Of a DNA stretch of 46,651 bases, positions 8,294 through 42,128 are shown piece after piece. The position numbers and the translations under genes were made by a program. The notes beneath the pieces were generated by a model that worked only from the letters and a program-made list of their open reading frames with translations, searched no databases and was not told where the DNA came from. Numbering within the stretch: position 1 is the first letter of the stretch; the number at the start of each line of letters is the position of its first letter. The stretch comes from Candidatus Desantisbacteria bacterium CG1_02_38_46 (GTDB lineage Bacteria > Desantisbacteria > UBA1551 > UBA1559), in assembly GCA_001871015.1 (NCBI GenBank), contig MNUO01000108.1, positions 1-46,651 of the forward strand, in the 5' to 3' direction.

Positions 8294-9919
8294 ATGCGTT
8301 CAGATACGATTAAAAAAGGTGTTGAGCGGGTGCCGCACAGGGGTTTGTTATATGCAACAGGTTTGTCAAAAGAAGATTTCAGGAAGCCATTTATCGGGAT
8401 AGCTTCAAGTTTTACAGATATTGTTCCCGGGCATACAGGAATGCGGGAACTGGAAAGATTTATTGAGCGTGGTATCTCTGCAGCAGGCGGAGTTCCTTTT
8501 ATCTTTGGCATACCGGCAATCTGCGACGGAATTGCAATGGGGCACAAAGGTATGAATTATTCCCTTCCTTTAAGAGAACTTATCGCTGACACTATTGAAT
8601 CTGTTGCAAATGCACATTGTTTTGACGGACTTGTTTTACTTACAAATTGTGACAAGATTACTCCTGGTTGCCTGATTGCTGCTGCACGTCTGAACATTCC
8701 AGCAATTATTATTACTGCAGGTCCGATGTTGTGCGGAAGATACAAAGGAACTGTAAGGCTTGATTTGGTTCACGATACTTTTGAAGCAGTAGGCAGGGCA
8801 AAGGCAGGCAAGATAACACAGGAGGAACTGGATACTCTTGAAATTGAAGCCTGTCCTGGTTTTGGCTCCTGTCAGGGATTATACACTGCAAATACGATGG
8901 CTTGCCTTACAGAGACTATGGGAATGTCTGTAACAGGTTGTGCTACTGCACTCGCTGTTTCTGCAAAGAAAAGGAGGATTGCATTTGAAAGCGGGAAAAA
9001 GGTTGTGGAATTAATTAAGAAAAAAGTCACTGCGAAAAAAATTCTGACAGAGAATGCTCTACTCAATGCAATTAGAGTTGATATGGCACTTGGAGGTTCT
9101 ACCAACACTATCCTTCATCTCACTCGCTTGGCAAGAGAATTAGAGATTGATTTACCTCTAAAACTTTTTGACATAATAAGTCGTTCTACACCGCACATTG
9201 TAAATCTACGCCCGGGCGGGGAATATTTTCTTGAGGATCTGGAGTATGCAGGTGGAATTCCAGCGATATTAAATGTTTTAAAGAACGACCTTAAATCTTC
9301 GTTGACTGTTAACGGAAAGAATATTCTGGAAATCGCAAAAGAAGGCGAGGTGTTTGATTCAGAAGTAATTCATAAAAAATCCAATCCATACCACAAAGAA
9401 GGCGGAGTTGCAATCCTTTTTGGGAATCTGGCACCCGGTGGAGCGGTTGTAAAACAAATAGCAGTAAGTCCGAAGATGCGCCGGTTTACCGGACGCGCAC
9501 ATATCTTTAATTCAGAAGAAGAAGCGATGAGAGGCGCTATGAACAAGAAAATTAAAAAGGGCGAAGTCATTGTTATCCGCTATGAAGGAGAAAAAGGTGC
9601 ACCAGGAATGCCAGAGATGCTTTCTTTAACTGCGTTTTTAACCGGGATGGGAATGGGAGAAAGTGTAGCATTGATTACAGACGGAAGATTTTCAGGTGGC
9701 ACCCGTGGTCCCTGTATAGGGCACATAGCACCTGAGGCAGCGGTTGGTGGGCCGATTGCAATTGTTAAAGATGGAGATATTATCCACATTGATATTGACA
9801 GGCGCAGGATTGAGTTGAAATTAAGTGATGCTGAAATCAAATTGCGACTTGCTAAATGGAAACCTCCTCTGCCCAGAGTAAAGACAGGCTACCTTGCAAA
9901 ATATGCTAAATTACTTTGA
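8294..9919 (+). CDS. ilvD: Dihydroxy-acid dehydratase
   Basis: [43 protein letters not shown] at 8294 after GGAGGTG. Confidence 0.97.
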
Positions 9920-22488: not shown

Positions 22489-23337
22489 TTATCTTAGAAG
22501 TGATTTTATTTCGTTGAGATGGACCCGTGCAGATTTTTCTCCCAGGGCAATGCAGATTTTTGCAGTTCTGAAATCAGCCCAGGGAATTGGACCGAGTTCA
22601 GGGCGTATTACCACATCTGCTTTATCTAATTGAGGCTGAGCAAGATAATACTGCTGGATATCAATTACTCGTATATATGTCTCAAATCTATTTTTTGGAA
22701 TATTGGGACATCGCAAATCAGGACGCACATCCACTGCTATAACTTTCTCAGCGCCCAACTCTCTAACTACATCCACCGGTACATTATCCAGTGTTCCGCC
22801 ATCCATAAGGAACATTCCTTCGTATTCCAGTGCTGGCCATATACCTGGCACAGTAGAGCTTGCATCAATTGCCATCCTTAACGGTCCTTTTTTAAACACA
22901 ACTTCTTTGCCTGACAGAATATCGCAGGAAATTGCTGCAAATGGAATTTTTAAATTTTCTATGTTAACCTTAGGAAGGAGAGTTCCAAGTATTCCTTCCA
23001 TTCGCCGCAGGCTGAAGAAAGATTGAGCAAGAGAGGGTATGTTTACCAGGCTCTGCTCAAGAATTTCCAACAATCTACCTGGTTTTTTTCCCAGGGATTC
23101 TTCCCCAAATTGTTTAAAACCAATACTGCGAAAGTAGTCAAGGAATCTGGTTATCCATAATTCCACATTTGATTCAAGGGCATAAGCACTACCAACGAGC
23201 GCACCGATACTTGTACCTGCAATTGATGAGATGGGAATTCCTTCTTTTTCGAGAACCCTCAGAATTCCCAGATGCGCCATTCCCTTAGCTCCTCCACCTC
23301 CAAGTGCTAATCCGATTTTTTTCATTTTTGCTCCCAT
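22489..23337 (-). CDS. Patatin-like phospholipase
   Basis: LGGGGAKG, GTSIG nucleophile elbow, DGG. Confidence 0.93.
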   Translation of the reverse strand: MGAKMKKIGLALGGGGAKGMAHLGILRVLEKEGIPISSIAGTSIGALVGSAYALESNVELWITRFLDYFRSIGFKQFGEESLGKKPGRLLEILEQSLVNIPSLAQSFFSLRRMEGILGTLLPKVNIENLKIPFAAISCDILSGKEVVFKKGPLRMAIDASSTVPGIWPALEYEGMFLMDGGTLDNVPVDVVRELGAEKVIAVDVRPDLRCPNIPKNRFETYIRVIDIQQYYLAQPQLDKADVVIRPELGPIPWADFRTAKICIALGEKSARVHLNEIKSLLR

Positions 23338-23364
23338 ATATATAGGGTTATTTGAACCAATACA

Positions 23365-23392
23365 ATTATATCATAAAATTTTCCAATGTCAA
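23365..23392 (-). promoter_or_regulatory. Sigma70-type promoter of the patatin gene
   Basis: Minus strand TTGACA-N16-TATAAT with TG extension. Confidence 0.7.
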
Positions 23393-23421
23393 TTTATTTT
23401 GAAATAAAAAAGGTTTTGATA

Positions 23422-23477
23422 TCAGGACTAAAGTCCTGAGTTACGTAACTCAGACCTTCAGGTCTGATTTTTCTTGA
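23422..23477. repeat. Family-A REP-like doublet
   Basis: 56 bp identical to 2775-2830. Confidence 0.9.
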
Positions 23478-23501
23478 CTTTTATTTTTTTTGTGTTATAA
23501 T
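23474..23501 (+). promoter_or_regulatory. Sigma70-type promoter of nikR
   Basis: TTGACT-N16-TATAAT with TG extension. Confidence 0.7.
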
Positions 23502-23532
23502 TATTAAAAATGTAATATGGAGGTAGGTCCGA

Positions 23533-23946
23533 ATGCCAGAGTTGCAGCGTTTTAGCGTCTCGCTTGATAAAAATCTTATAATTAAATTTGATAAACACAT
23601 TAGAGAAAGAGATTATTCTACACGTTCAAAAGCAATTGGTGACTTGATTAGAGAAGATTTGGTCAAGAAAGAGTGGGTTGGCGGGAAAGAAGTTGCTGGC
23701 GCAGTTACATTAGTTTATAACCATCACAAAAGGGAATTGGTGAATAAGTTAATTAACATTCAACACGACTTTCACGATTTGGTTCTTTCCTCGCAACATC
23801 TTCACCTTGATGAAGAAAATTGTCTGGAAATTATAGCGGTAAAAGGGAATCCCAAAGAAGTGGAAAAACTGGCTCATATACTAAAAGCTACAAAAGGTGT
23901 AAAGTATGGTTCTGTAACTATGGCCACAACCGGAAAAGAAATATAG
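23533..23946 (+). CDS. nikR: Nickel-responsive transcriptional regulator NikR
   Basis: RFSVSL ribbon-helix-helix, RSKAIGDLIR, YNHH, QHD, QHLHL...CLE nickel ligands. Confidence 0.95.
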   Translation: MPELQRFSVSLDKNLIIKFDKHIRERDYSTRSKAIGDLIREDLVKKEWVGGKEVAGAVTLVYNHHKRELVNKLINIQHDFHDLVLSSQHLHLDEENCLEIIAVKGNPKEVEKLAHILKATKGVKYGSVTMATTGKEI

Positions 23947-23948
23947 CA

Positions 23949-23976
23949 GTATTATTTTTTTCTTCAATTGTAACAC
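23949..23976. promoter_or_regulatory. Putative NikR operator
   Basis: GTATTA-N16-TAACAC imperfect inverted repeat with the 6-16-6 geometry of the E. coli NikR box. Confidence 0.55.
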
Positions 23977-24196
23977 GAATTTTAAAAATATAATACAATA
24001 TGAGGTTTGAAACGAGAGGGGGTGATTCCAAAAAGAGATGAGATGTGAAGGTAAAAAAACAAGAAGGCAGCCCTGTCGGTAAACAAGAACTGCCTTCCTG
24101 ACGGTACCTGTGTTACACAAAGGTAAACCCAGGCCCGCTTATGACATATATAATATCATAAGTCGGGTCAAATGTCAATAAAAAGGAGGCTCGACG

Positions 24197-26209
24197 ATGG
24201 AAAAACAGCAAATGGTAAGAGTTAAGAGAGTTATATTGGCAGGAGTGCTGGTTTTTGGTTTGGCAAATCAGATTTGTGCCGAAGAATCAGCAACTTACGA
24301 ATTAGGGGAAATAGTGGTAACGGCAACGAAATTGGAGGAATGGACTAAGAATATTCCTGCAACTGTGAATGTAATTACTGCCGAGGAAATTGAGAAATCT
24401 CAGGCAAAAAGTATGACAGAAGTTTTGGAGGATGTTGCAGGAGTAAGTCTTTCTGCGTCAGACGCGAGTGGAAGGAATCCTGTGCTGACTCTGCGAGGTG
24501 TGTATGATTACAATTCCAGTCATGTGCTTGTGCTTGTGGATGGGGTACCGATTAATTCACCGGATACAGGAAAGCCCTATCTGAATGCAATTCCTTTAAA
24601 CAATATTGAAAAAATAGAAATTGTAAAAGGCGGCAATTCTGCGGTATGGGGCGGCTATGCAATGGGAGGCGTGGTAAATATTATTACTAAGAAAGGAAAG
24701 AGAACTGGTGCAAAAGCTTCTGTTAGTTTAGGGGAATGGAAAACAAATATTATGAATGTTTCAGGTGAAGCGGTTTTACCATGGGATATTGCTTTTAGTT
24801 TGAACGCGGGCTCAAAAACAAGTGACGGCTACAGACAATATTCCAATTATGATATGCAGAATTTCGGAGGTTCTCTTTCCAAAAATGATGAAAAACTGGG
24901 ATATAAGGCATCTTTGAGTTTTGGGTATTATAATGAGAGTTGTAAATATCCAGGAACTTTAACTGAGACGCAATGGGAGAACGGCCAGTATCAAGTCGGT
25001 GACCCAAATTACTGGTGCAGTGATGGCAGGCAGAATAATGCTTATCTAAGATTGGGATTTGAAAAACACTTGCCATTCAATCTTTGCGCAAAAGCGGATA
25101 TAAATTACCTGAAGAAGGGTTATACATTTTATTACCGCAAAAAAAATACACCAAATGTAGAAAAAGCAGATATAAATGATGTCTCTGTTCCTGGGGGAGG
25201 AGTGCAACTCAGCGGAGAAGTTTTAAAAAATGCATTTACCCTCGGATGGGAGATGAAAACAGGATATGTAGATAGCAGGAATCATCCTGCTAATTCTGCA
25301 ACACTGGAAATTAATAAAAGCACAATAAAAGACAAGTACAAGTATACAACTCTTAATTATAGTGCTGTTTATCTTCAGGATATGTGGAAGATTTTTGATT
25401 GGCTGAACATAAATATGGGGATAAGATATGATGCGCTTGCTCATAAAATTGAGGATAGAAAAGCAGGTAAAGAATATCTTCCAAAAACAGATGCATGGAG
25501 TCCGAATTTCGGCGTAATGTTCAGGCCAATTGCCCATGTTGGATTGTTTGCATCAATAAGCCAGGCATTCAGACTGCCAACAGAATCTCAGTTTTGCCAA
25601 ACACCAGAGTTAAGACCTGAAAAAGGCATTAATTATGAGGTTGGAACAAAAATTTCAACTCAAAGAGCTTCTGTTGATATAAGTGTCTATCAGATGGATG
25701 TGACTGACAAAATTGCATACGATACAGACCCTGCCGGTTGGAAGTATCGCAACATTGGTGCGGTCAAACATCAGGGTGTGGAACTTAGCAGCAGGGTGAA
25801 AATTTTTGAAGGTTTAAGTGCCAGGATTTCAGGGGATATGATAAAAACCGAGATTATCAGTGACCCCAAGAATCCGGAGACAATAGGGAAAAATTTTAAT
25901 CAGGTTCCACTTTGGAAGGTTTCTCTGGGATTGGAGTATGCAAGCAGGGAACCGGGTTTTGTAGCAAAAATAGATATGCGCAAGGTTGGAGAATGGTATA
26001 TGGACACAAAAAATGAAGTGACATACCCGGGTTATTTTGTTACAGATGTGAAACTTTCCTGGAAGAAGAACGGTCTGGGTTATTTTATCTCCTGCAACAA
26101 TGTGCTTGATGAAAAATATTGCCGCAAGGCGGATATCTCAGGAACAACAAAGCGTTATTCTCCTGCTCTTCCAAGAACATTTTCTGCAGGGATGAGCATA
26201 GAACTTTAA
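24197..26209 (+). CDS. TonB-dependent outer-membrane receptor
   Basis: Signal peptide, EIVVTAT TonB box, LVLVDGVPIN, IEKIEIVKG..SAVWG..AMGGVVNIITK, C-terminal PRTF. Confidence 0.94.
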   Translation: MEKQQMVRVKRVILAGVLVFGLANQICAEESATYELGEIVVTATKLEEWTKNIPATVNVITAEEIEKSQAKSMTEVLEDVAGVSLSASDASGRNPVLTLRGVYDYNSSHVLVLVDGVPINSPDTGKPYLNAIPLNNIEKIEIVKGGNSAVWGGYAMGGVVNIITKKGKRTGAKASVSLGEWKTNIMNVSGEAVLPWDIAFSLNAGSKTSDGYRQYSNYDMQNFGGSLSKNDEKLGYKASLSFGYYNESCKYPGTLTETQWENGQYQVGDPNYWCSDGRQNNAYLRLGFEKHLPFNLCAKADINYLKKGYTFYYRKKNTPNVEKADINDVSVPGGGVQLSGEVLKNAFTLGWEMKTGYVDSRNHPANSATLEINKSTIKDKYKYTTLNYSAVYLQDMWKIFDWLNINMGIRYDALAHKIEDRKAGKEYLPKTDAWSPNFGVMFRPIAHVGLFASISQAFRLPTESQFCQTPELRPEKGINYEVGTKISTQRASVDISVYQMDVTDKIAYDTDPAGWKYRNIGAVKHQGVELSSRVKIFEGLSARISGDMIKTEIISDPKNPETIGKNFNQVPLWKVSLGLEYASREPGFVAKIDMRKVGEWYMDTKNEVTYPGYFVTDVKLSWKKNGLGYFISCNNVLDEKYCRKADISGTTKRYSPALPRTFSAGMSIEL

Positions 26210-26224
26210 AGGACAGGTATTAAA

Positions 26225-27088
26225 ATGGACAGGAAGACATGGGCAGGGATAATGCTTTTGGTTATTTCTGCCCTGTGCATCAGCATTTTTTTGTCGGGGG
26301 ATAGAAAAGGGAGTAAGCCCGTAAAAGGACCTCCTTACCAGAGGATTGTTTCTCTTTCTTCTACCACAGAGATTCTCTGTGATTTGGGAGCAGTAGATAA
26401 AATAATAGGAATTGGCGGTGTAAGCAAAAAATCTCCTTATTATGAAATTCTTAAAGATAAACCACAGATTGGAGGTGGGTTTCACAACCTCAACATAGAG
26501 AGAATTTTGGGTCTTAAACCAGATTTAGTCTTCTGCTGGAAAGCGCATGCGGATGTTCTCAAATCAAGGGATTTGAATGTGTACCCCACAGGTCCTTATG
26601 ATATAGAGGGGATAATGGAGTTAATAAAGGATGTGGGCAAATTTGTTGGTAAAGAGAAAGAAGCAGAAAAAACTATTTTTGATATGAAAACGAAAATAAA
26701 TAAGATAGAAGAAAAATTAAAAAATGCCGGTAGCCAGCCACTTGTTTATTTTGAAGCAGGAACGTTAGGCAAGTCAAGGGCTAAAGGTTCGCTCACGCAT
26801 GATTTAATTACAAGGGCAGGGGGAATAAATCTTGCAAAGGATGAACCGGTTCCATTTCCTTTATTAAGTAGTGAATGTATAATTGAGAAAAATCCGGACA
26901 TTATTATTGTTGAGGAATATGGCGCTCCTGTTGAAGAGATAAAAGCTCGCAGGGCATGGCAGAATATAAAGGCAATAAAAAACAACAGGGTTTATCAAAG
27001 TCCTGTGTATTATACCAATTACACTCCAAGGTGTCTTGAGGGGTTGGAACAATACGCTAAATGGTTTCATCCCGAGGTTTTTAAATGA
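26225..27088 (+). CDS. Cobalamin/iron-chelate ABC transporter substrate-binding protein (BtuF-like)
   Basis: RIVSLS, NIERILGLKPDLV, AGGINLA, NPDIII. Confidence 0.9.
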   Translation: MDRKTWAGIMLLVISALCISIFLSGDRKGSKPVKGPPYQRIVSLSSTTEILCDLGAVDKIIGIGGVSKKSPYYEILKDKPQIGGGFHNLNIERILGLKPDLVFCWKAHADVLKSRDLNVYPTGPYDIEGIMELIKDVGKFVGKEKEAEKTIFDMKTKINKIEEKLKNAGSQPLVYFEAGTLGKSRAKGSLTHDLITRAGGINLAKDEPVPFPLLSSECIIEKNPDIIIVEEYGAPVEEIKARRAWQNIKAIKNNRVYQSPVYYTNYTPRCLEGLEQYAKWFHPEVFK

Positions 27089-28092
27089 AACAAAAAATAA
27101 TTCTTTCTGTTTTGTGCACTGTGCTTTTTCTAACTTTGCTTTCAACCCTGACGATTGGTCCGGTGCATATTCCGATAAAAACAGTTGCAAAAATTCTCCT
27201 GTCTAAGATTTATAATATCCAAGCAACATGGCCAGAGAATTTTCAATCAATAATACTTTTTGTCCGGTTTCCACGAATACTGTTAGGTATTCTTGTTGGT
27301 TGTGCTTTAAGTGTTTCCGGCTGTGCGATGCAGGGTATGTTCAGAAATCCTATGGCAGATTCTTATGTCTGTGGCATTGCATCAGGGGGAGCGTTTGGAG
27401 CTTCTCTGGTTATTATTTCCGGGATGGGGCGGGGCTTGATTATGCCTGTTGCATTTGGTTTTTCCCTGCTCGCAATATTTATCGTCTATTATCTTGCAAA
27501 GACAGGTAGGAAGGTTCCTGTTGAAACTCTGCTTCTTTCAGGTATAGCGATTTCTCTTTTCTTTTCAGCGCTTACTTCTTTTATCCATTACATTTCCGAA
27601 GAATGGCAGTGGCGCGAGATGATTTTCTGGATTATGGGAGGTTTATGGAAGAGTGACTGGAATAGAGTTGCAAGCAGTTCCCCGATTATTATTCTGGGCA
27701 CATTGGGGTTAATGTTTTTTAGCAGGGAATTGAATATTCTTTTAATAGGCGAAGAACAGGCACAGGACTTAGGGGTTGAAGTGGAGAAAACAAGAAAAAT
27801 TATCCTTGTTTTAAGTGCACTTGTAGCTTCTTCTGCGGTTGCTGTGTCAGGTATCATTGGTTTTGTAGGATTGATTATTCCTCACACGATGAGACTTATC
27901 ATAGGTCCTGACCATCGATTTCTTCTTCCGGCATCCTGTCTTGCCGGCGGCATATTCCTTGTCTGGGTTGATACAATTTCCCGCACTCTAATTTCTCCAA
28001 GCGAACTTCCAGTTGGTATTATTACTGCGTTGTTCGGGGTTCCGTTCTTCCTGTTCTTGTTGAGAAGAAGAAAGAAGATAATTGGATTTTAA
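27085..28092 (+). CDS. FecCD/BtuC-family ABC permease
   Basis: RFPRILL, QGMFRNPMAD, GIIGFVGLIIPH, ELPVGIITA. Confidence 0.93.
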   Translation: MKQKIILSVLCTVLFLTLLSTLTIGPVHIPIKTVAKILLSKIYNIQATWPENFQSIILFVRFPRILLGILVGCALSVSGCAMQGMFRNPMADSYVCGIASGGAFGASLVIISGMGRGLIMPVAFGFSLLAIFIVYYLAKTGRKVPVETLLLSGIAISLFFSALTSFIHYISEEWQWREMIFWIMGGLWKSDWNRVASSSPIIILGTLGLMFFSRELNILLIGEEQAQDLGVEVEKTRKIILVLSALVASSAVAVSGIIGFVGLIIPHTMRLIIGPDHRFLLPASCLAGGIFLVWVDTISRTLISPSELPVGIITALFGVPFFLFLLRRRKKIIGF

Positions 28093-28093
28093 G

Positions 28094-28879
28094 ATGAAAT
28101 TAAAGGTTTCCCATCTGAATTTTTCTTATGATGATGTTGAGGCGCTGGAAGATGTTTCTCTGGATGTGGAATCCACACAAATTCTGGGAATCATCGGACC
28201 GAATGGTTCCGGGAAAACAACACTTCTTAAATGCATAAACAGAAAGTTAAGACCCCGCTACGGGACAATATTGATTGACACTAAAAATATCTCTAATTTT
28301 TCGCGCAAAGAAATTGCAAGAAATATAGGTGTGGTTCCTCAGGTTTCCTCAATTTCTTTTTCATTTCTTGTATCTGACATAGTCTCAATGGGAAGATACG
28401 CGTATCTTTCAAGATTTGGCAGGGAAACAGAGAAGGACTTATCAGCAGTCAAAAGTTCATTAGAACTAACTGGAACCGCACATTTATCCAATAGGTTCAT
28501 TAATGAAATTTCAGGCGGGGAATATCAAAGAGTAATTATTGCCAGGGCATTAGCACAAGAGTCAAAAATTCTCCTTCTGGATGAACCAACATTACACCTG
28601 GATATCAATCACCAGATAGAAATCCTGGAATTAGTGCGTTCGCTTGCAAGAAAAAGAAATCTTGCAGTAATAATGGTTTTGCATGATTTAAACTTATCTG
28701 CCCGGTTTGCAGACAGGTTGCTCCTCTTGAATAAAGGCAGGGTTTACAAGGCCGGTTCTGTGGAAGAGGTGCTTCAACCAGAGAACATAGAGAAGGTTTT
28801 CCGGATAAAGGTCAAAATAATCCGTGATACTGAGACAAACATATTGAGTGTTCTCCCGGTTTCAGTAATGAAAGGATAA
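28094..28879 (+). CDS. Iron-chelate/cobalamin ABC transporter ATPase
   Basis: GPNGSGKTT, ISGGEYQR, LLLDEPTLHLD. Confidence 0.94.
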   Translation: MKLKVSHLNFSYDDVEALEDVSLDVESTQILGIIGPNGSGKTTLLKCINRKLRPRYGTILIDTKNISNFSRKEIARNIGVVPQVSSISFSFLVSDIVSMGRYAYLSRFGRETEKDLSAVKSSLELTGTAHLSNRFINEISGGEYQRVIIARALAQESKILLLDEPTLHLDINHQIEILELVRSLARKRNLAVIMVLHDLNLSARFADRLLLLNKGRVYKAGSVEEVLQPENIEKVFRIKVKIIRDTETNILSVLPVSVMKG

Positions 28880-28881
28880 AA

Positions 28882-31800
28882 ATGAAGAAAGAGCCATGGA
28901 TTGGGTTTTATCATCCGGGATGCAACAGTGTTTTTCAGCAAAAAGCTGATTATGTAAGGTGGTACGAAAAACAGCAGCCTCATTTAAAATACTGCGCTTC
29001 AAAAAAGGTTGGGATATTTTTCTCCCGTTCCCAGTGGATAAAAAAAGATATGAGGTTAGTTAATTTATTGCTTGAAGAACTTGAGAAAAGAAAAATTTTT
29101 CCTGTTGCTGTTTTTGCTCAAGCCAGGGAATACGGTGGTCCGGGATGTCCTGGCTTGGAGCCGGGCCTGAAATTGTTGAAGGGAGTTGATTTTATAATAA
29201 ATCTGCAATCATCTTTTCTTGTTCAATCTGCCATCGGGAAAGAATCATTGCCAGGTATTCTGGAAGATATAGGTGTTCCGATTATGCAGGCAGTGCATGA
29301 AAGCTCAAGGACAGAGACGGAATGGAAAGAAAATCCTCAAGGGTTAAGTCCATCTGTCCAGATTTACTGGGTGGCACAACCGGAATTCAATGGACTGATT
29401 GAACCCATTCTTGTTTCCGCAAAGGATGAAAGCAGAAAAAGCGAAGGGGGTTTTGGCGGTCCGAGGAAGCCGGTGAAAGAAAGGATAGACTTTCTCATAG
29501 AAAGAATCTCTGGCTGGTTAACATTATCCCGAATTCCGCCTCAAGAGAGACGGGTAACCTTCCTTTTGCATAACGCTCCCTGTGCAGGGGTAGAAGCTTC
29601 TGTAGGAGGAGGGGCCGGGCTGGATACGCTGGAAAGCGTTGTAAGAATAATGAAGCAGATGAAAGAAAGAGGATATAAAATAGAAAATTGTCCGAAAGAC
29701 GGCAGGGAATTGATTGATATAATTATGCACAGAAAGGCAGTCAGCGAATTTCGCTGGACAACCATAGACGAAATTGTCCAGAAAGGAGGGGTCAGGGAGT
29801 TTATCAGCGTAGAAAAATACAATCAATGGCTGGATGAATTAAGTCCTGCAACAAGAGAAAAAATGATTTCAGGATGGGGCAATCCTCCAGGGGAAGGAAT
29901 GGTTTATCAGGGGAAAATCGTTGTTACCGGAATTAAATTTGGCAATGTGAATGTGCTTGTTGAACCAAAAAGAGGCTGTTACGGGGCAAGGTGTGACGGA
30001 AAGGTGTGCAAGATTCTCCATGACCCTGGTATTGCCCCCACACATCAGTGCCTTGCTACCTATAAATGGGCAGAGGAAAATTCTGATGTAAAAATTTCCG
30101 TAGGAACTCATGGATACATAGAATTTCTGCCGGGTAAATCAGTTGGATTGAGCAGGGAATGCTTCCCGGAAATTATTACTGGCAAAAAACCGCATTTGTA
30201 TATTTATACGGTTGCCAATCCCGCAGAGGGAATACTTGCGAAGCGGCGCGCGTCCGCCACAATTATTGACCATATGACGCCAGTGATGAAGCCATCAGGA
30301 CTTTATGATAAATTAAACGAAATGGAAGAACTCTTAAAGCAGTGGACTCAAGCAAAAAGTCTGAACCAGGAAAGCCGGGCAAAAGTTATTCTAAAAGATA
30401 TTTTTTTTCTTGCTGAGAAGTCTAATCTTATTGAAAAAGGCAAAGAGGTGCCAGTAGAAAATTTAATTGAATATTTGCACGGGAAGTTAAATCTTTTTCG
30501 GGAAACGCAGATAAATGATGGAATGCATATTTTAAGTAAAATTCCTGACAGGAAAGGTATTGCGAACATAATTGTTTCTATTCTTCGCTTTGAAGGGACG
30601 TGGCCATCCATAAGAAGGTTAATTTTAGAGACAATAGGTTATAATTACGGCACAGACCATTCAGAGCTGCTGGATAGAACTACTGGGATTGCATTTGAAC
30701 TGGTAAAAACCGGGTTGAATATAAAACTGGATAAAGAGAGCAGGGTAATATCATCACAGAAATTGAAAAAGAAAATTTCTGAATTGATGGAGGTAAAGAA
30801 TAAGGATAAGGCAAAAGAATTAATCCGGCTTATTATGTGGGCAGCAGAAGTAATTTACCCGAAGTTAAAGATGGTTAAAGGAGAAATACCGCAGCTTTTA
30901 AGGGCTTTTGATAAGGAGTATATACGGCCTGGCGCCAGTGGCCACATAACTCGCGGGAAAATAGAAGTGTTACCCACAGGTAGAAATCTGTACAGTATGG
31001 ACACTCGCGCAATCCCCACAAAAGCCGCGTGGGAAGTGGGAATTAAAATGGCACAGGGCTTGCTGGATAAATATCGCAGAGACGATGGGAAATATCCGGA
31101 GAATATCGGAATGGTTTTGTGGAGTATTGACGCTTACCTTGCTGATGGAGAACAGATTTCCAAGATTTTATATCTGATAGGTGCAAGACCCGTCTGGATG
31201 GAGTCGGGGATTGTAAAGGGGACAGAGGTTATTCCTTTGAAGGAACTTGGAAGACCGCGTCTGGATGTGACCATAAGGACAAGCGGTATTTTCAGGGATA
31301 CCTTGCCTCATATAATAGAATTACTTGACGAAGCAATCTGTAAGATAGCAAATCTTGATGAGAGTGATGAAGATAATTTTGTAAAGAAACACGGGGCTGG
31401 CTATCGGATTTTCTGCGCACGGCCAGGCGGCTATGGCAACGGCGTAAGCTTAATGATTGCAGCCAGTGCATGGGAGAATATGAAGGATTTGGGAGAAATT
31501 TATATCGAAAGGGGTGGCTATGCCTACGGGAAAGGAGTTTACGGAAAGGCCTCGCATAATGAATACGCACATCGTCTGAGCAGTGTGGAGGTAGTTTTTC
31601 ACAAACTGCCTTCCGACGAATTTGACATTCTGTCCTGTTGTAGTTTTTTTGATTTTCAGGGGGGGATGTACTCGGCAGTCAAGTCTCTTTCAGGAAAAGA
31701 ACCCAGAATTTACTGGGGTGATACAAAAGACCCGCAGAGGCCAAAAATTAGAGACCTAAAGGATGAAATAGAAAAATCTGTGCGCACAAGACTTCTGAAT

Positions 31801-32250
31801 CCTGCTTGGATTGAAGGAATGAAAAGACATGGATATAAAGGAGCAGGTGATATTTCCAAAAGAATCGGGCATGTTTATGGTTGGGATGCATCTGCAGAAG
31901 TAGTGGCTGACTGGATATTTGATGACATTGCAAAAGCCTTTGTTTTGAATGATGAAAACAGGAAATTTTTTGAGGATAATAATCCCTGGGCGATGGAAGA
32001 AATTTCGCGCCGCTTACTGGAAGCAGAAAAACGCGGCATCTGGAAAGCAGACCCCGATGTTTTAAGGGAATTGAGAAACAAATACCTGGAAATCGAAGGG
32101 TGGATAGAAGAAAAAATGGGAGATGTCCAGGGAGAATTCCAGGGAGGAAACATTGATATAATAACAAAGAATGAGATTGAAGACTGGGCAAAGAAATCAA
32201 ATTTTGATTTGGAAGAGTTTTTAAAAACAGGAGGGAAGAATGCACCATAA
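28882..32250 (+). CDS. cobN: CobN/magnesium chelatase H-family subunit
   Basis: [54 protein letters not shown]; metal specificity unknown. Confidence 0.9.
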
Positions 32251-34204
32251 ATATGTTGTTTATCCATTTACTGCAATTGTGGGCCAGGAAAAAATGAAAA
32301 AGGCACTTATTCTTAATGCTATAGATTGGAAAATAAGCGGAGTTTTGATTCGCGGAGAAAAGGGAACTGCAAAATCTACTGCTGTCCGGGCACTTGCGGC
32401 CCTACTTCCAGAAATAGAGGTGGTTGCTGATTGTCCTTTCAGCTGTAACCCATATGAGCTGAGAGAGATGTGTAAATCCTGTCAGGAACGTAAAAAATCA
32501 AACCAGAAAATTTCGGTTAAAAAGAGGAGAATGCTTGTTGTGGACCTGCCAATCAATGCAACTGAGGACAGGGTTATCGGAACGTTGAACATAGAAAAGG
32601 CATTGAAGGAGGGAACCAAGGCCCTGGAGTCGGGCATACTCGCAGAAGCAAACAGAGGGATATTATACATAGACGAAGTAAATCTTTTGGATGACCACAT
32701 TGCCGACGTTCTTCTGGATGCTGCTGCAATGGGAGTGAACATTATAGAGAGAGAAGGCATATCTGTTTTTCATCCGGCCAAATTCATTCTTATTGGGACT
32801 ATGAATCCCGAAGAAGGGGAATTGAGGCCGCAGCTGCTGGACAGGTTCGGATTAAGCGTCCGTGTGGAAAAAATAGAAGATAGAGAAAGAAGGGTAGAAA
32901 TAATCAAACTAAGAGAAGAATTCGATGCCGATTCATTTTCTTTTGAGAAAAGGTTTGGCAAATTCCAAGATGGAATGCAGAAGAAAATAATTAAGGCAAG
33001 AGATATTCTGCCCAAAGTCAACATCCCGGAAGACCTTTTGTCGAAAATCAGCCAGACCTGTATAGAATTTGCAGTGGACGGATTGAGGGCAGATATTATT
33101 ACTGCAAAGACAGCAAAGGCAATTGCCGCTTACGATTGTAGAGAGAAAGTAAATGAAGCTGATATTCTTGAGGCGCTTGAATTTACGCTTGAACACCGTA
33201 TGAGAAAGAATCCTTTTGAGAAACCCGAGCTAGACAGAGAGAAATTAAGGCAGACAATGGAAAAGGCAGGTCAAAAAGAGAAAAAATCCCCACCACAGAA
33301 CGATAAGCAAAAAGATTCACCTCGGCAGGATAAAGAAAAATCCCGGGAAAACCCTTCTGCAAAACCAGGAATTCCGAAAGAAGAAATTTTCAAAATAGGG
33401 GATGGTATAAAAACAGATAAAATGTTTAATGTTAAAAAAGACAGAATCTATCGCAATTCCACGGGCAGGAGCGTAAAGACACTTACGAAGTCAAAACAGG
33501 GGAAGTACGTAAGAACAAAACTGCCGAAAGGAAAAATCAGAGACATTGCAATCGATGCCACCATCCGGGCAGCTGCCGTTAATAAAAAAAACGGTGGGTT
33601 TAAGATAAACATTGAGGACATCCGTGAGAAAATAAGGGTTGGGAAAGGAGCTTCACTTGTGGTGTTTGTAGTAGATGCCAGCGGTTCTATGGGGGCAACT
33701 GAGAGAATGAAGTCAGCAAAGGGAGCTATATTTTCCTTTCTTAACAGAGCATACCAGAAAAGAGACAGAGTGGCTATGATTGTCTTCAGAAATAAAGAGG
33801 CTTATACCTTGCTCCAGCCGACAAGAAGCATGGATCTGGCAATGAAAAAACTTGAGGAGATTCCTACAGGAGGAAAAACACCTCTGCCAGCAGGCATTTT
33901 GAAAGGGATGGAAACAATTAAAAGTGAACTTATTAAGAACGATAATTTGATTCCTGTGTTGGTATTAATAACTGACGGTAAAGGAAATGTGCCAATAGAA
34001 GAAAATGTTTTTAATGAACTTAAATATTGTGCCGATGAAATTAAGAAACGGAATCTGCGGACAATTGTAATAGATACAGAGTCCGGTTCTCTTAGATTCG
34101 GTCTCGCAAAAGAATTTGCAGAAGATTCAAAGGCAAAATATTATCATTTAAATGAAATAGAACCAGGGAAGATCGCGTCAATTGTTAGTTCAGAGGTGCG
34201 TTAG
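32240..34204 (+). CDS. ChlI/ChlD-type chelatase AAA+ ATPase with C-terminal vWA domain
   Basis: [43 protein letters not shown], charged linker, DASGSM MIDAS. Confidence 0.93.
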
Positions 34205-34712: not shown

Positions 34713-36606
34713 GCGTGCCAAGAAGTTCTTTGATTTCTAATTGACTGAAAGGTGTCAATCATCGTAATTGTCTGTTAGCGATGTAGTCTGAGATGCAATA
34801 TGTGGAGAAATCTGCAGTGTTGTAGCTATTTGACAAATTCCGCTTTAGGCGGGAGAGGCAAACAAGCAGACCGTAACAAAAGTGAACCTATATGTAGCCT
34901 CGTTAGGAGTAAATGGGAAAGGCGAGCCTGTGTTATGTGGGCGAAGCCAGTAATCTATCCCAAGAGACAGATAAAAGCAGGATAGATTTTCTCCGGGGTA
35001 ACAGGGACGGTATGCTTGGAAAGAACTCAAGGGAAACTTGGGAGAGCCTACCCTATCACTCGTAAGGAGTAAAACTTTTGCCTATAACCGAAAGGGAAGT
35101 GGCAATAAGGGTAGGGAGGTAGTCGGAGGAGTTCATAGTAGCGAAGAGAATAGGGACAACAAAACCCTATATGAGCGAAGGAACTCTGCTTTAACTAATG
35201 TTTTCAAAGAAAGGATGGATTTAGTAGATTGGACAATAACCTACCAACTACGGATAAAGTTCAGGAATTTCAGAGAAAACTATACCTTAAGGCAAAGTCA
35301 CAGCCAAACTTCCGCTTCTATGCTTTATACGACAAGATTTATCGAACAGATGTCCTTCAAAAAGCCTGGCAAAGAGTGAGATTAAATCACGGTTCGCCAG
35401 GCATAGATGGGAAAACCATCAAGGACATTGAAGAGGCAGGAGTGGAAGATTTTCTTAAAGGCATTCAGCAAGAGCTGAAAGCAAAGGAATATCAACCATC
35501 GCCAGCGAGGAGAGTTTATATCCCCAAGCCTGATGGCAGGTTAAGACCATTGAGCATACCTACTCTAAAAGATAGGGTTGTTCAGATGGCTTTAAAATTG
35601 GTAATTGAGCCTATTTTCGAAGCACACTTCGAGGATAACTCATATGGATATAGACCTCAAAGGAATGCCCAGCAGGTAGCTTTGGAAATCCGTAAATATC
35701 TTAATTACGGAATGACCGAAGTTATTGAGGCTGACCTTGAAGACTGTTTTGGTTCTATTCCTCACAGGGAACTTCTGGATATGATTGCCAGAAGAGTAGT
35801 TGATGGTAGGGTGCTACACTTAATAAAACTATTCCTGAAAACAGGAGTAATGGAGCAAGGAGGGAAAAGGATAGACGAGACAGGCACTCCACAGGGCGGG
35901 GTAATATCGCCATTATTGGCAAATATATACCTTGACCAGATGGATAAAGGCTGGAAGCCATTAAATGAAACTGCCCGTCTTTTAAGATATGCAGATGATT
36001 TGGTGATTATCACCAAATATAATGCAGAGAAATTTCTCTTTGAACTTCAGAAACTTACTACTAAATTGAAGTTAAAACTTAAGCCAGCAAAAACAAGAGT
36101 AGTAAATGCAGAAGAAGAAAGTTTTGACTTTTTGGGATATAGTTTTAGGAAAGCATTGAACCCACAGAAGACGAAGAAGGTAGCATATTTTTGGCCATCA
36201 CAGAAGGCAGAAAAGACAATAAAAGAGAAAGTGAGGAAGATTACAAATCCTGCTCGACCTGTAAAGGTAGGGCAAGTGATAAAAGAACTCAATCCAGTAA
36301 TTAGGGGATGGGTAAATTACTTTAGAATAGGCAACTCTACAAAGAAATTCGATAATCTTAAGTTGTGTGTAGCAGAGAAAATTAGGAAGTTTATGCGTAG
36401 ACGCAGGCAGAAGGCAGGATATGGATATAAGAAATATCCTGATGAATATCTATACAGCAAATTAGGTTTGTATAGAGACTATCATCTTGCGTGGACGAAA
36501 GCCTTAAGATGAGCGGTTATCGGAAAGCCGTGTGAGGGAAAACCTCACGCACGGTTTGATGAGGGGACGCTGAAAACCCTGTGAGGGCGTCAGTGTTCTA
36601 CTCTAC
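34713..36606 (+). mobile_element. Group II intron, apparently full length
   Basis: 5' GCGTG (variant of GUGYG); domain V gaaagccgtgtgagggaaaacctcacgcacggtttg; domain VI ending ctctAC; candidate EBS1 gttatgt (about 34932) pairs with upstream exon acataat. Confidence 0.88.
35229..36512 (+). CDS. ltrA: Group II intron reverse transcriptase/maturase without endonuclease domain
   Basis: PGIDG, RPLSIPTLKDRVVQ, GTPQGGVISPLLANIYL, RYADD, FDFLGY, LNPVIRGWVNYF; TTG start. Confidence 0.95.
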   Translation: MDNNLPTTDKVQEFQRKLYLKAKSQPNFRFYALYDKIYRTDVLQKAWQRVRLNHGSPGIDGKTIKDIEEAGVEDFLKGIQQELKAKEYQPSPARRVYIPKPDGRLRPLSIPTLKDRVVQMALKLVIEPIFEAHFEDNSYGYRPQRNAQQVALEIRKYLNYGMTEVIEADLEDCFGSIPHRELLDMIARRVVDGRVLHLIKLFLKTGVMEQGGKRIDETGTPQGGVISPLLANIYLDQMDKGWKPLNETARLLRYADDLVIITKYNAEKFLFELQKLTTKLKLKLKPAKTRVVNAEEESFDFLGYSFRKALNPQKTKKVAYFWPSQKAEKTIKEKVRKITNPARPVKVGQVIKELNPVIRGWVNYFRIGNSTKKFDNLKLCVAEKIRKFMRRRRQKAGYGYKKYPDEYLYSKLGLYRDYHLAWTKALR

Positions 36607-39723: not shown

Positions 39724-40302
39724 ATGCAAAATCTTTTTAATGAATTAAAGACTCTTTTGGAAAAAGACAATAGATTGGTAATCGAAGGCAAACTTTTAAA
39801 AAACAAAGTTATTGAACTGGCACTGAAATTAGATTCAGAATTGTTGAAACTACTTCTTAAGAATGAAAGTATAAAGAAACATTTCTTTCAGGAAGTCGAG
39901 GGAGCACTTGTTTTTGATAAAATAAAATTCCAAAAATTTGTCAGCAATAAGGCATTTTTACCTGATAGTTATACTTCGTTTAAAAATAAAATAGGACTTG
40001 TAACTGAAAATGAAGAATATCTCTCTGAAAGTAAAGAGGTTGTTTTAACCTGGCCATATAAGGACTGTGTGCTTGAAGGTGGTATGGAAAAAGAGGACGA
40101 GAAACGAGCTGAAATATTTTACAATGAAATACTTGCTCCAGATGAAATTGACCGCTTACTTGAACCGAAAGTTTTAACTAACTTCAAAAGAATAGATAAA
40201 GACGGAGAACATAAAGTAAAAGAAAAAATTATTTTTCTGGATTTCTTGCGTATGGTTCTGCGTTATTCCTTTTGTGCTTTTTGCAGAAGAGGTTCATCTT
40301 AA
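39724..40302 (+). pseudogene. N-terminal fragment of a type III R-M Mod methyltransferase
   Basis: LLKNKVIELAL, FLPDSYTSFKNKIGL, WPYKDCVLEGG, EIFYNEILAPDEIDRLLEPK; similarity ends near 40220, with no DPPY or FxGxG motif. Confidence 0.8.
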
Positions 40303-40915
40303 AGATGGTAAAATAATCCCTGGAACCATTGTGTCTTCTGACACTGATTCAGTTAATCTGAAGACAGAGTATGGGGAAATTCGGATAGAACGAAAAGATA
40401 TAAATAAAGTGGAATACGCAAAGCCAATCGAAAGAAAAAAATTAAGAAAATTTGCAGTTGGGTTTGAAATGAACCCCTATTCTTATTACACTTCTGCAAT
40501 ACCCTTATGGGCGTTCGGCATTTCTTATTTACCTTCACCTAAAGTTGCAATTCAGGCAATGGGAAGTTATTTTTCCTTGTGGGGTAGGAGTGTTTCAAGC
40601 ATCTACTTTTTTTATGGATATCCAATTAAAGTGGCAGAAAATCCAGAGATTAGCTTATTCATTAACGCCGGATGTGCTTATCAACATGCCCATTATGAAG
40701 CAACTTATTACTCATCTTCTTATGATTATGATGCCTGGTCTGCCTTAGTAGGCCTTACCCTCGAGTCCCACCCTCTTTCTTATTTGCCTAATTTTGGATA
40801 TTCGGTCCGGGGCGGAATTAGTTATTCTTGGTTTCCCAACCTGACTTCTTATTCATACGCTGGAAATGCTATGTGGTACTATTTGAGCGCAGGTCTTTTT
40901 TATTATTTGTTCTAA
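40220..40915 (+). CDS. Probable outer-membrane beta-barrel protein that has lost its start codon
   Basis: Frame reads KKKLFFWISCVWFCVIPFVLFA-EE (signal peptide) directly after an in-frame TAA; aromatic-rich; ends YYLF; ORF track starts it at 40274. Confidence 0.6.
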   Translation, partial: KKKLFFWISCVWFCVIPFVLFAEEVHLKDGKIIPGTIVSSDTDSVNLKTEYGEIRIERKDINKVEYAKPIERKKLRKFAVGFEMNPYSYYTSAIPLWAFGISYLPSPKVAIQAMGSYFSLWGRSVSSIYFFYGYPIKVAENPEISLFINAGCAYQHAHYEATYYSSSYDYDAWSALVGLTLESHPLSYLPNFGYSVRGGISYSWFPNLTSYSYAGNAMWYYLSAGLFYYLF

Positions 40916-41021
40916 GAATACAGCATAGAAAAATAAATACTACCAAAATTAATGATACAATAACACAATTGGGCTATAGACCTTTTTCCTAAAGGGAATA
41001 AATGGTTTATATAGATTCGGC

Positions 41022-41086
41022 TTGACAGACAAAGATTTTTATGGTATAATGTCTATAAAATCAGACAATTGTCTATAAAATAAGAC
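41022..41086 (+). promoter_or_regulatory. Sigma70 promoter with tandem palindromic operators
   Basis: TTGACA-N17-TATAAT (TG-extended), followed by gtctataaaatcagac and gtctataaaataagac at 20-bp spacing. Confidence 0.75.
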
Positions 41087-41097
41087 AAAGGAGAAAA

Positions 41098-41715
41098 ATG
41101 GAGTATCAGAAAGTTTTAGATAAAATTCTTGGTCAAAAAACAAAAGTAAAGATTCTTCGTTACATGATAAGTTCTCATAATGAGCAAAGTGGCCGCCAGA
41201 TTGCGCAGGAGTCTGGAGTAAACCACGAACAGTGTCATCGTGTCTTGCAGGAACTCTATCGGGAAGGATTATTGAACATGCACCATGCTGGCAATGCATA
41301 CTTGTTCAGTCTGCGAAAGGAACACTACATAGTTAATAAGGCAATTATTCCCCTCTTTCAAACAGAATTAAGATTGCTACAGACTTTAATTGAAGAAATC
41401 AAACACATTAAAAATGCCAAAATTTCTTCCCTGGTACTTTTTGGCAGTATTGCCAAGGGGAAGGGGCGACCCCATAGCGACATTGATGTTCTGGTAGTGG
41501 TCAGAAACAAAGTGAATAAAGAAAAAATATCTGATGAGATTCACAGGAAAAATGATTATTTTCTCTCGCGCTATGGAAATGCTCTATCACCCTACGTAGT
41601 CAGCGAAGAGGAATTTATAAGACGATATAAAAAGGGAGACAAACTTATCAAGGAAATTGTCAGGTGTGGAAAAGTTGTTTCTGGTAAAACACCGGGAGAA
41701 CTTATTACAAAATGA
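41098..41715 (+). CDS. wHTH-fused nucleotidyltransferase (MNT antitoxin)
   Basis: SGRQIAQESGV HTH; VLFGSIAKG..SDIDVLVV. Confidence 0.88.
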   Translation: MEYQKVLDKILGQKTKVKILRYMISSHNEQSGRQIAQESGVNHEQCHRVLQELYREGLLNMHHAGNAYLFSLRKEHYIVNKAIIPLFQTELRLLQTLIEEIKHIKNAKISSLVLFGSIAKGKGRPHSDIDVLVVVRNKVNKEKISDEIHRKNDYFLSRYGNALSPYVVSEEEFIRRYKKGDKLIKEIVRCGKVVSGKTPGELITK

Positions 41716-42128
41716 ATCCCAAAAAGATACCTTTCCAAAAAATTGAACATTCAAGATTTGCCATTTATCTAAAGAAAGCGAAAGATTTTTATCAATCAAT
41801 GCTGAGGGCATACAGCGATAACAATTGGCATTCCGTTGGGTTAGAGGCAGTCCATTGCGCTATTTCGGCTACTGATGCTCTTTTGGTTTATCGGGCAGGG
41901 ATAAGGTGCACAAGTCAGAGACATCTTGATATAGTTGATGTTTTAGTTGACCAGATAAAGACAGAAAAGTCCCAAGAAAATATCAGAACTCTGATTAAAA
42001 TTTTAGAAATGAAAAACTTAGTTGAATATGAAGATAGATTGTTCACTCAAAAAGAGGCATCCGAAATACTCAAGCGCACAGAAAGATACTTTAGCTGGGT
42101 AAAAAATCAATTGCCATCGGATGTTTGA
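41712..42128 (+). CDS. HEPN-domain protein (putative toxin)
   Basis: YLKKAKDF, AVHCAISATDA, H, KNLVEY pattern; coupled to the MNT gene. Confidence 0.82.
   Translation: MNPKKIPFQKIEHSRFAIYLKKAKDFYQSMLRAYSDNNWHSVGLEAVHCAISATDALLVYRAGIRCTSQRHLDIVDVLVDQIKTEKSQENIRTLIKILEMKNLVEYEDRLFTQKEASEILKRTERYFSWVKNQLPSDV

Follow-up and report, generated by a model that had tools for sequence, protein, structure and literature searches.

The nikR locus and its receptor, importer and chelatase-type operon

The DNA analysed here, referred to below as the window, is the entire 46.6-kb contig MNUO01000108.1 (46,651 nucleotides) of a 1.73-Mb, 87.8%-complete groundwater metagenome-assembled genome (MAG), that of Candidatus Desantisbacteria bacterium CG1_02_38_46; the public sequencing runs that contain it are groundwater and aquifer DNA runs. 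Its central part carries a nikR gene, an operator-like sequence and an operon (24197-34204) encoding a TonB-dependent receptor, a BtuF/C/D-like ATP-binding cassette (ABC) importer, a CobN-like protein and a fused ChlI/ChlD ATPase. Pfam and NCBIfam profile searches recovered all seven genes named in a first-pass annotation of the sequence, each in the place assigned to it. The six operon genes are separated by junctions of only -11 to +15 nt and are for this reason regarded as tightly (translationally) coupled. The profile matches and junction lengths together confirmed the layout which that annotation had described, namely nikR, then GTATTA-N16-TAACAC, then a tightly coupled run of receptor, ABC, CobN and AAA+/vWA genes. 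The features of this region are as follows (no strand is given for the NikR boxes).

23474-23501, + strand: nikR promoter-like site, TTGACT-16-TATAAT with a TG (consensus match, 11 of 12 positions)
23492-23518: weak NikR box candidate with 3 mismatches, GTGTTAT-N13-GTAATAT, which overlaps the nikR promoter at its -10
23533-23946, + strand: nikR, ribbon-helix-helix and NikR_C domains, 137 amino acids (aa)
23949-23976: candidate NikR operator, GTATTAT-N14-GTAACAC (2 mismatches to the published consensus)
23970-23999, + strand: operon promoter-like site, GTAACA-18-TACAAT (consensus scan, 9 of 12 positions)
24197-26209, + strand: TonB-dependent outer-membrane receptor, Plug and barrel, 670 aa, signal peptide, TonB-box-like ELGEIVVTA
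26225-27088, + strand: class III substrate-binding protein, Peripla_BP_2, N-terminal anchor or signal
27085-28092, + strand: FecCD-family permease, BtuC-like, several hydrophobic segments
28082-28879, + strand: ABC ATPase (Pfam/NCBIfam)
28882-32250, + strand: CobN-family protein, apparently headless, 1122 aa, soluble (PF02514, 1099 bits)
32240-34204, + strand: fused ChlI/ChlD-type subunit, AAA+ module and vWA domain, 654 aa

The nikR product passes the NCBIfam model NF003381 (171 bits against a cut-off of 105; NikR_C domain at 3.3e-30), has NikR of Pyrococcus horikoshii as its closest solved relative (2bj1, 7e-39), and is the sole NikR in the genome. Alignment with the P. horikoshii and H. pylori proteins showed that the H-x-H-x5-C stretch and the upstream His of the IQH motif, which we take to be the high-affinity nickel ligands, are kept.

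Candidate NikR boxes were scored as mismatches to the consensus GTGTTAC-N13/14-GTAACAC reported for delta-proteobacterial NikR (PMC545781). The pattern GTATTA-N16-TAACAC, picked after the sequence had been seen, matches the window once, against 0.03 matches expected from shuffles. The operator region holds three half-sites starting at 23949, 23970 and 23990 (spacings of 21 and 20 nt), the third of which, ATAATAC (23990-23996), is the exact reverse complement of the first; the operon promoter-like site overlaps both the GTAACAC half-site and the third one. The same half-site arrangement (GTAACACGA...) is also found upstream of the operon at a related locus, L018. Such boxes with 3 mismatches are frequent, 27 of 2903 background windows (420 nt each) having one, hence the box at 23492-23518 is weak when taken alone; it marks a possible autoregulation of nikR.

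The importer genes approach corrinoid and haem uptake families from below their curated thresholds. The receptor lies under every NCBIfam cut-off, the nearest being a haem family (203 bits, cut-off 317) and a B12 family (172 bits, cut-off 600). The permease has BtuC as its top NCBIfam match (NF007081, 330 bits against 461), and the ATPase reaches 268 bits with the corrinoid ATPase family (cut-off 537) and 260.4 bits with the haem ATPase family (cut-off 261). The binding protein scores 72 as BtuF (cut-off 234), its solved relatives being the B12-binding 5ysc (3e-21), E. coli BtuF (~1e-11), the haem binder 2r7a (1e-10) and 4ino (1e-9); the last of these, deposited as a nickel(II)/iron(III) ABC-transporter periplasmic binding protein, we take to be H. 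pylori CeuE.

The CobN-like protein is likewise below the CobN equivalog cut-offs (NF004646, 1303 bits against 1468; TIGR02257, 793.5 against 822), and scores 734 as BchH against a cut-off of 829. It belongs to a clade of short CobN proteins that start 131-171 residues later than longer relatives, the missing N-terminal residues being taken to be the head domain, and it contains no hydrophobic 19-mer, so that no membrane anchor is seen. In a tree of 48 proteins, all 35 short ones fall into one clade (SH-aLRT 100), nested among long CobN-like proteins of anaerobes such as those of Thermoanaerobacter kivui and Methanothrix MAGs; the window protein groups with those of loci L029 and L030 (support 83). 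Its close relatives, 50-69% identical and ~1125-1150 aa long, come from MAGs of Caldisericota, Elusimicrobiota, Hydrogenedentota and Thermodesulfobacteriota.

The putative metal site is partly retained and partly altered. His410, the catalytic His of the superfamily (VGTHG within the HFG(T/A)HG motif), is present together with Glu449. A preprint on Brucella CobN gives H554, E593 and D1100 as its Co(II) ligands (10.64898/2026.07.21.739949). Aligned with that protein (9uk9), H554 corresponds to His410 and E593 to Glu449, and Asp1100 and the preceding Ser1099 are replaced by Cys920 and Cys919; Cys920 is invariant in 23 clade members, and the cobalt-ligand Asp site of the Brucella enzyme is thus lost in these proteins. 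A separate cluster, C366/C371/C376/C390 (C-x4-C-x4-C-x13-C) with His380 and His388 (residues 366-390), is invariant in the short clade, shares its first three Cys with the long T. kivui and Methanothrix MAG proteins, and is deleted in relatives from gut metagenomes. A similar Cys motif binds an Fe-S cluster in BchH; the one found here may bind an Fe-S cluster or a metal.

The ChlI/D protein falls just short of the cut-off of TIGR02442 (776.4 bits against 779.45) and below those of BchD (462 against 500) and BchI (448 against 467). Its motor motifs are all intact (Walker A GEKGTAKS, Walker B ILYIDE, MIDAS DASGS). With sub-cut-off scores throughout and no pigment genes nearby, the pair does not qualify as a ChlH/BchH-ChlI/ChlD magnesium chelatase.

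Recurrence of the module, nikR and NikR boxes

Loci of the close CobN clade were fetched from genomes (26 loci) and metagenomes (80 loci), giving 43 non-redundant groups. The module has a conserved order of receptor, binding protein, permease, ATPase, CobN and then ChlI plus ChlD or their fused form, with the ABC genes directly upstream of CobN in 21 of the 23 genome-collection loci that have upstream flank.

Beyond the window, nikR lies inside homologous receptor-ABC-CobN-ChlI/D clusters in six further loci from two CobN clades. At L018 it stands after ChlD. On an Elusimicrobiota contig (L185, reverse strand, joined to L030), a long one-strand cluster opens with nikR and a 3-mismatch box, and nikR is followed there by a CbiM/NikM-family gene, an 88-aa open reading frame (ORF), a DUF2162 gene, a MotA/ExbB-like gene, a DUF2149 gene, a long CobN paralogue (30% identity), the receptor-ABC-CobN-ChlID module, and ExbB-ExbD-TonB. 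In a sister clade of long CobN proteins (41-44% identity), nikR is adjacent in 4 of 11 fetched loci (L189, L196, L197 and L198). The entire receptor-to-ChlD operon is present in 8 of these 11; L193 and L197 are cut by a contig end, and L199 is without the receptor only. At L196, a perfect NikR box precedes a divergent CbiM operon and a 2-mismatch box precedes the operon that runs from tonB and the receptor through CobN to nikR, and at L198, where nikR is the first gene, a 3-mismatch box ends 1 nt before its start codon.

Boxes with at most 2 mismatches occur in 3 of 20 non-redundant short-clade operon upstream regions, against 0 of 2903 background windows (420 nt). The three are the window itself (2 mismatches), L029 (perfect, 40 nt before the receptor start) and L049 (1 mismatch, beside a TTGACA). 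Both signs of nickel control that the first-pass annotation had picked out, nikR linkage and the box, therefore recur outside the window, with six further nikR loci and boxes of 0, 1 and 2 mismatches at L029, L049 and L196. On this genomic evidence, the idea that the nickel link is more than adjacency, which is the regulatory half of the reading developed below, appears well supported. A literature search, which left out most subscription journals and supplements, found no paper describing a NikR-CobN link.

Same-order relatives of the host are scarce (1 of 40 sampled genomes), and the short clade was found in none of the 40. In the class of G195 (Syntrophia-like, 200 genomes), no further short-clade CobN was found at ≥50% identity, the other 13 matching genomes having the long form or more distant relatives.

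Several observations accompany these loci. In L029, the closest orthologous operon, a Fur-family regulator gene (L029:11907-12395) directly follows ChlID. One genome, G043, holds a frameshifted nikR remnant (L161, G043:C1:about 138360-138600, minus strand) whose C-terminal domain can be read in two frames; two copies of the leader element R1, described in the last section, and another receptor gene follow directly downstream. A conserved membrane protein of ~324 aa stands before or after CobN in 17 related loci (for example L026:13399-14385 and L020:9030-9986); it is absent from the window and L029, shows a weak Pfam Gate domain in one copy and has no NCBIfam match.

Candidate function of the operon and rival explanations

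Rfam scans revealed no cobalamin riboswitch in the window (gathering scores), in the interval 23300-24400 (E up to 10) or in the 26 related genome loci totalling 398,107 bases. Nor did Pfam and NCBIfam annotation reveal any corrin, chlorophyll or pigment genes among the window neighbours, which comprise a patatin-like gene, an MFS transporter, housekeeping or mobile genes and a group II intron; the first-pass annotation had noted both absences, and both were borne out. The genome does contain a riboswitch-controlled cobalamin set on contig C52 (G000 C52:432-7253), consisting of a binding protein, permease and ATPase, two tandem cobalamin riboswitch matches (55 and 30 bits) and a second TonB-dependent receptor. 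Given this btuB/btuFCD set, to which the window importer is 25-47% identical, cobalamin uptake is apparently served elsewhere in the genome. Searches of the 87.8%-complete genome for HemB, HemC, CbiC and CobS gave no hit, and the cell thus appears to have no tetrapyrrole synthesis of its own. The window CobN is therefore unlikely to act as a biosynthetic chelatase for cobalt or magnesium, and since no markers of tetrapyrrole or corrin synthesis were found, its substrate would have to be imported. At the same time, the genome encodes nickel-demanding enzymes, namely an anaerobic CO dehydrogenase CooS (TIGR01702, 409 bits for an incomplete protein at the end of a contig) and the large subunit of a group-4 [NiFe] hydrogenase, in which both pairs of Cys motifs are present, and neither NikM/CbiM nor NiCoT nickel transporters were found in it at the same completeness.

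The reading that we favour, and to which we give an even chance, is NikR-repressed nickel scavenging in which CobN/ChlID removes nickel from a tetrapyrrole-like chelate after its import. With ample nickel, Ni-NikR would bind the half-site array at 23949-23996, which covers the -35 and -10 of the operon promoter, and the operon would be shut off; NikR may repress nikR as well. When nickel is scarce, the receptor would admit a nickel complex that exceeds the size limit of porins, most probably a tetrapyrrole-like chelate, and the BtuFCD-like ABC system would carry it into the cytoplasm. There the soluble, headless CobN and its single ChlI/D motor would most likely run the class I chelatase reaction backwards with ATP, and the released Ni(II) would pass to CO dehydrogenase and [NiFe] hydrogenase. 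We infer accordingly that NikR binds the operator, that the cargo joins nickel to a tetrapyrrole and that the reaction runs toward metal removal. Dechelation is preferred because the ABC parts resemble corrinoid and haem importers, because the fold of HmuS can dechelate, and because a starved cell gains by release; the Cys-for-Asp exchange at the metal site is consistent with nickel-tetrapyrrole dechelation. The first-pass annotation had suggested import and dechelation of a metallo-tetrapyrrole under nickel limitation. The regulatory half of that suggestion is strengthened by nikR within the clusters, the boxes and the lack of a B12 riboswitch; its other half, the nickel-tetrapyrrole cargo and the dechelation, keeps the standing of a proposal.

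Elements of such a system have precedents. In Helicobacter, NikR represses the TonB receptors FrpB4 and FecA3, which work with ExbB/ExbD/TonB and a CeuE-FecDE type ABC importer (PMC7689651, PMC11247825). The window likewise combines NikR with a TonB-dependent receptor and a class III binding-protein ABC importer, as used there for chelated nickel species, and its binding protein is detectably related to the deposited nickel-binding protein 4ino (1e-9); unlike the window, Helicobacter nickel uptake involves no CobN or ChlI/D, and its cargo is thought to be a small nickel complex. In P. aeruginosa, the Zur-regulated PA1922-PA1925 locus is reported to contain a TonB-dependent receptor and a CobN-like protein of unknown role, PA1923 (PMC8531726). 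There, as in the window, a metal-starvation regulator presides over a TonB-receptor operon holding a CobN-like gene, but the regulator is Zur and the signal zinc. In place of ChlI/D and an ABC importer, its other partners are presumably ExbB/MotA-like and DUF2149 proteins. The BtuB-BtuFCD system, like the window, combines a receptor with a class III ABC importer, and the window permease and binding protein have BtuC- and BtuF-like proteins as their closest matches; the window differs in having no cobalamin riboswitch and in scoring under every equivalog cut-off.

The two nearest comparisons for the CobN-like protein are the cobaltochelatase CobN-CobS-CobT (PDB 7c6o, 9uk9) and HmuS of Bacteroidota (PDB 9d26). 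With the former, the window protein shares family and body domains, the His and Glu ligands and an AAA+/vWA partner; it differs in being headless, in having Cys at the position of Asp1100, in its sub-cut-off scores, in the lack of cob genes nearby and in its linkage to an importer and NikR. HmuS is a CobN homologue shown to remove metal from haem (PMC12583661), so the earlier statement that Bacteroidota CobN-like proteins demetallate imported tetrapyrroles is established for HmuS with haem. As in the Hmu system, a TonB-dependent receptor is coupled to a CobN-superfamily protein, and the (T/A)HG His is conserved as His410. The same report describes HmuS as membrane-anchored, with head and neck domains bearing a Met-79/His-254 haem site, a Met-rich insertion and a family motif LSLDHxxEFMGG that includes His-1209 and Glu-1212, and as serving iron through a dechelation that requires NADH, not ATP (PMC12583661). 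The window CobN, in contrast, is soluble and headless, has CC(S/C) in place of LSLDHxxEFMGG and is paired with an intact AAA+/vWA motor; it shows neither the family motif nor the head-neck haem site nor the anchors, the HmuS N-terminus lying outside the alignment. Hmu/HmuS is also not under NikR, unlike the window operon.

Several results weigh against nickel scavenging by dechelation. The HmuS analogy is loose, because HmuS uses NADH rather than ATP and is membrane-anchored. The 1.73-Mb genome holds 7 NikR sites with at most 2 mismatches against ~12.7 expected from base composition, and the operator at 23949-23976, taken alone, is at chance level genome-wide and not significant; it does, however, lie next to nikR, and of the 7 it alone is neither intragenic nor part of a repeat, five of the other six being within genes and one in a repeat. 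For most short-clade members, nikR and a convincing box were both not seen, 17 of 20 upstream regions having at least 4 mismatches to the consensus. Among 24 tested genomes carrying a short-clade CobN locus, intact NikR is present in 5, inside the cluster in 3 of those 5; it was not found in 18, and G043 has the frameshifted remnant only. Nor was NikR found in the genome of L029, the locus with the perfect box, this being a 1.4-Mb genome of unstated completeness. An Opp/Nik-family binding protein on contig C113 (193 bits against a NikA cut-off of 393) leaves room for another nickel route into the host, and since its genome is 87.8% complete, genes not found in it are not to be equated with genes absent.

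One rival explanation is that nikR and the operon have no functional link, so that nikR would regulate itself or distant genes and the operon would be under other control, for example by a leader or antisense element. The chance level of the box alone fits this explanation, as do the many homologous operons that have a conserved hairpin leader instead of nikR and boxes; we nevertheless hold it to be quite improbable, as it leaves the independent co-localisation in seven loci, two CobN clades and several phyla to coincidence, together with perfect or near-perfect boxes exactly at operon promoters in L029, L049 and L196. A Hmu-like haem or iron acquisition system, in which haem would be imported, CobN would remove its iron and the nikR neighbourhood would be secondary, also fails to explain nikR in 7 loci and the recurring boxes. 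It could draw on the receptor's top NCBIfam family (haem/haemoglobin receptors), on an ATPase almost at the haem ATPase cut-off, on the Fur-family gene after the L029 operon and on the HmuS precedent (PMC12583661), but with LSLDHxxEFMGG, the head-neck haem site and the membrane anchors all missing from the window CobN we regard it as very improbable.

The direction of the reaction and the identity of the metal allow two further alternatives. The machine might insert nickel rather than remove it, an imported metal-free or otherwise metallated macrocycle receiving Ni(II) with ATP to give a nickel cofactor or store. The intact motor motifs of the window ChlI/D and a metal-site thiolate that would suit Ni(II) agree with this, as do two points from the literature: according to PMC12583661 and 10.64898/2026.07.21.739949, all characterised ATP-coupled members with an I/D motor insert metal, and CobN homologues were once proposed as the F430 nickel chelatases of methanogens (PMC3087415). 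We consider insertion unlikely all the same, given that no tetrapyrrole pathway markers or downstream modifying genes were found in the genome or the operon and that nickel spent on a macrocycle during starvation is hard to justify. We also know of no nickel-tetrapyrrole enzyme in such bacteria, and nickel insertion into F430 is carried out by the class II chelatase CfbA. Salvage of cobalt or corrinoids would have a cobalt-free or incomplete corrinoid, or a cobalt chelate, imported and CobN/ChlID insert or remove cobalt, with NikR sensing cobalt or cross-regulating. This possibility, which seems to us about as improbable as the lack of any functional link, takes its support from the top NCBIfam matches (CobN, BtuC and the corrinoid ABC ATPase), from a closest solved binding protein that binds B12 and from the CbiM-family gene accompanying the Elusimicrobiota cluster. 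Those matches, however, are all under curated cut-offs, no B12 riboswitch was found in the window or the 26 related loci although one controls the other btuB of the genome, the cell would be unable to finish a repaired corrinoid given that CobS and CbiC were not found, and the regulator has the conserved NikR nickel-ligand pattern.

The recurrence of the NikR link in unrelated anaerobes points to an undescribed scavenging of nickel from a large organic chelate. A bolder generalisation of the favoured NikR-repressed dechelation, which we regard as doubtful, is that the headless, thiolate-site CobN proteins of anaerobes and their I/D motors are ATP-driven nickel dechelatases that pirate environmental nickel tetrapyrroles through NikR-controlled TonB/ABC import. 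If so, the nickel might come, for example, from F430 of methanogens and alkane-oxidising archaea, from the products of its breakdown or from nickel geoporphyrins, and a function would be found for a large group of orphan 'CobN' genes in anaerobes without aerobic-route B12 or chlorophyll synthesis. CobN homologues in anaerobes and archaea that have no aerobic B12 pathway are a long-standing annotation puzzle, their functions being called unclear in the 2025 HmuS paper (PMC12583661); the NikR and TonB/ABC link and the Cys-for-Asp change turn it into a testable hypothesis of nickel acquisition by a chelatase-type machine. Were this correct, it would be a new mode of trace-metal scavenging in anoxic groundwater and sediments, where nickel limits hydrogenase, CO dehydrogenase and methane-cycle enzymes, and many 'cobaltochelatase' annotations would be corrected.

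Leader elements and neighbouring sequences

The leader between the operon promoter-like site and the receptor gene contains a candidate antisense RNA and a promoter-like site that would drive it.

24040-24145, - strand: candidate small antisense RNA in the operon leader, two hairpins, the second (24064-24099) strong, terminator-like and followed by a U7 run
24150-24178, - strand: strong promoter-like site, TTGACA-17-TATTAT with a TG (11 of 12 positions)

Folding of the minus strand of the leader gave -39.4 kcal/mol (z -4.58), a value that none of 200 shuffles equalled, against z -1.12 for the plus-strand leader, and the leader has no match in Rfam. A covariance model built from 13 homologous leaders defined a conserved element of ~125 nt, R1, which is absent from Rfam 15 and lies just upstream of TonB-dependent receptor genes; 49 instances were found.

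R1 instances: L011, L012, L014, L017, L025, L026, L031, L035, L036, L044, L052, L054, L125-L159
R1 example coordinates: L026:4540-4666; L135:1501-1631

Within one Desulfobacteria-like class, 29 of 151 genomes have R1 matches, a single genome holding as many as 5 copies. Its stem P1 (GGAAGGCAGCC...GGCUGCCUUCC) is 91% paired, with compensatory changes in all 11 pairs, and a local hairpin is the alternative to a second stem and a long-range helix of at most 14 bp. Read on the opposite strand, the 3' part of the element (UAnCA-N16-GUCAA) is an extended -10 promoter; on the plus strand, P1 has 24 A-C against 8 G-U cells. R1 may, judging from these patterns, be a divergent antisense small-RNA gene, a leader switch or both. 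The window leader scores 9.1 bits with the R1 model, which is not significant. Nor is R1 specific to CobN operons, as none of 20 further instances has CobN within ~12 kb; because it precedes TonB receptors in general, R1 is uninformative on nickel.

A second, related leader type was seen upstream of the receptor in Syntrophia-like genomes (L189, L191, L192, L195 and L196; for example L192:about 1120-1250). It consists of a hairpin (GAGGCAGGG...CCCUGCCCC) followed by a conserved CAGAAAGGGGGUGGAAUGUAAAC just before the receptor start, and in L189, L190 and L196 it sits downstream of a co-directional tonB-like gene. According to their record titles, several of the related loci come from hydrocarbon-seep, hydrothermal and tar habitats, where nickel tetrapyrroles are plausible, an anecdotal observation.

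Elsewhere in the window, the interval from the patatin gene to nikR contains a short palindromic repeat (GGACTAAAGTCCTGAGTTAC, 23424-23445), of which contig C89 has several tandem copies (~8590-8710) that give rise to a chance NikR-box match. A group II intron occupies 34746-36606, ~540 nt past the end of the operon, with a reverse transcriptase/maturase ORF at 35229-36512, and another group II intron domain match is found at the contig start (202-286). Further downstream are a type III restriction-modification methylase fragment followed by a nucleotidyltransferase/HEPN gene pair (39724-42128), and a HEAT-repeat protein of 684 aa (42654-44708).

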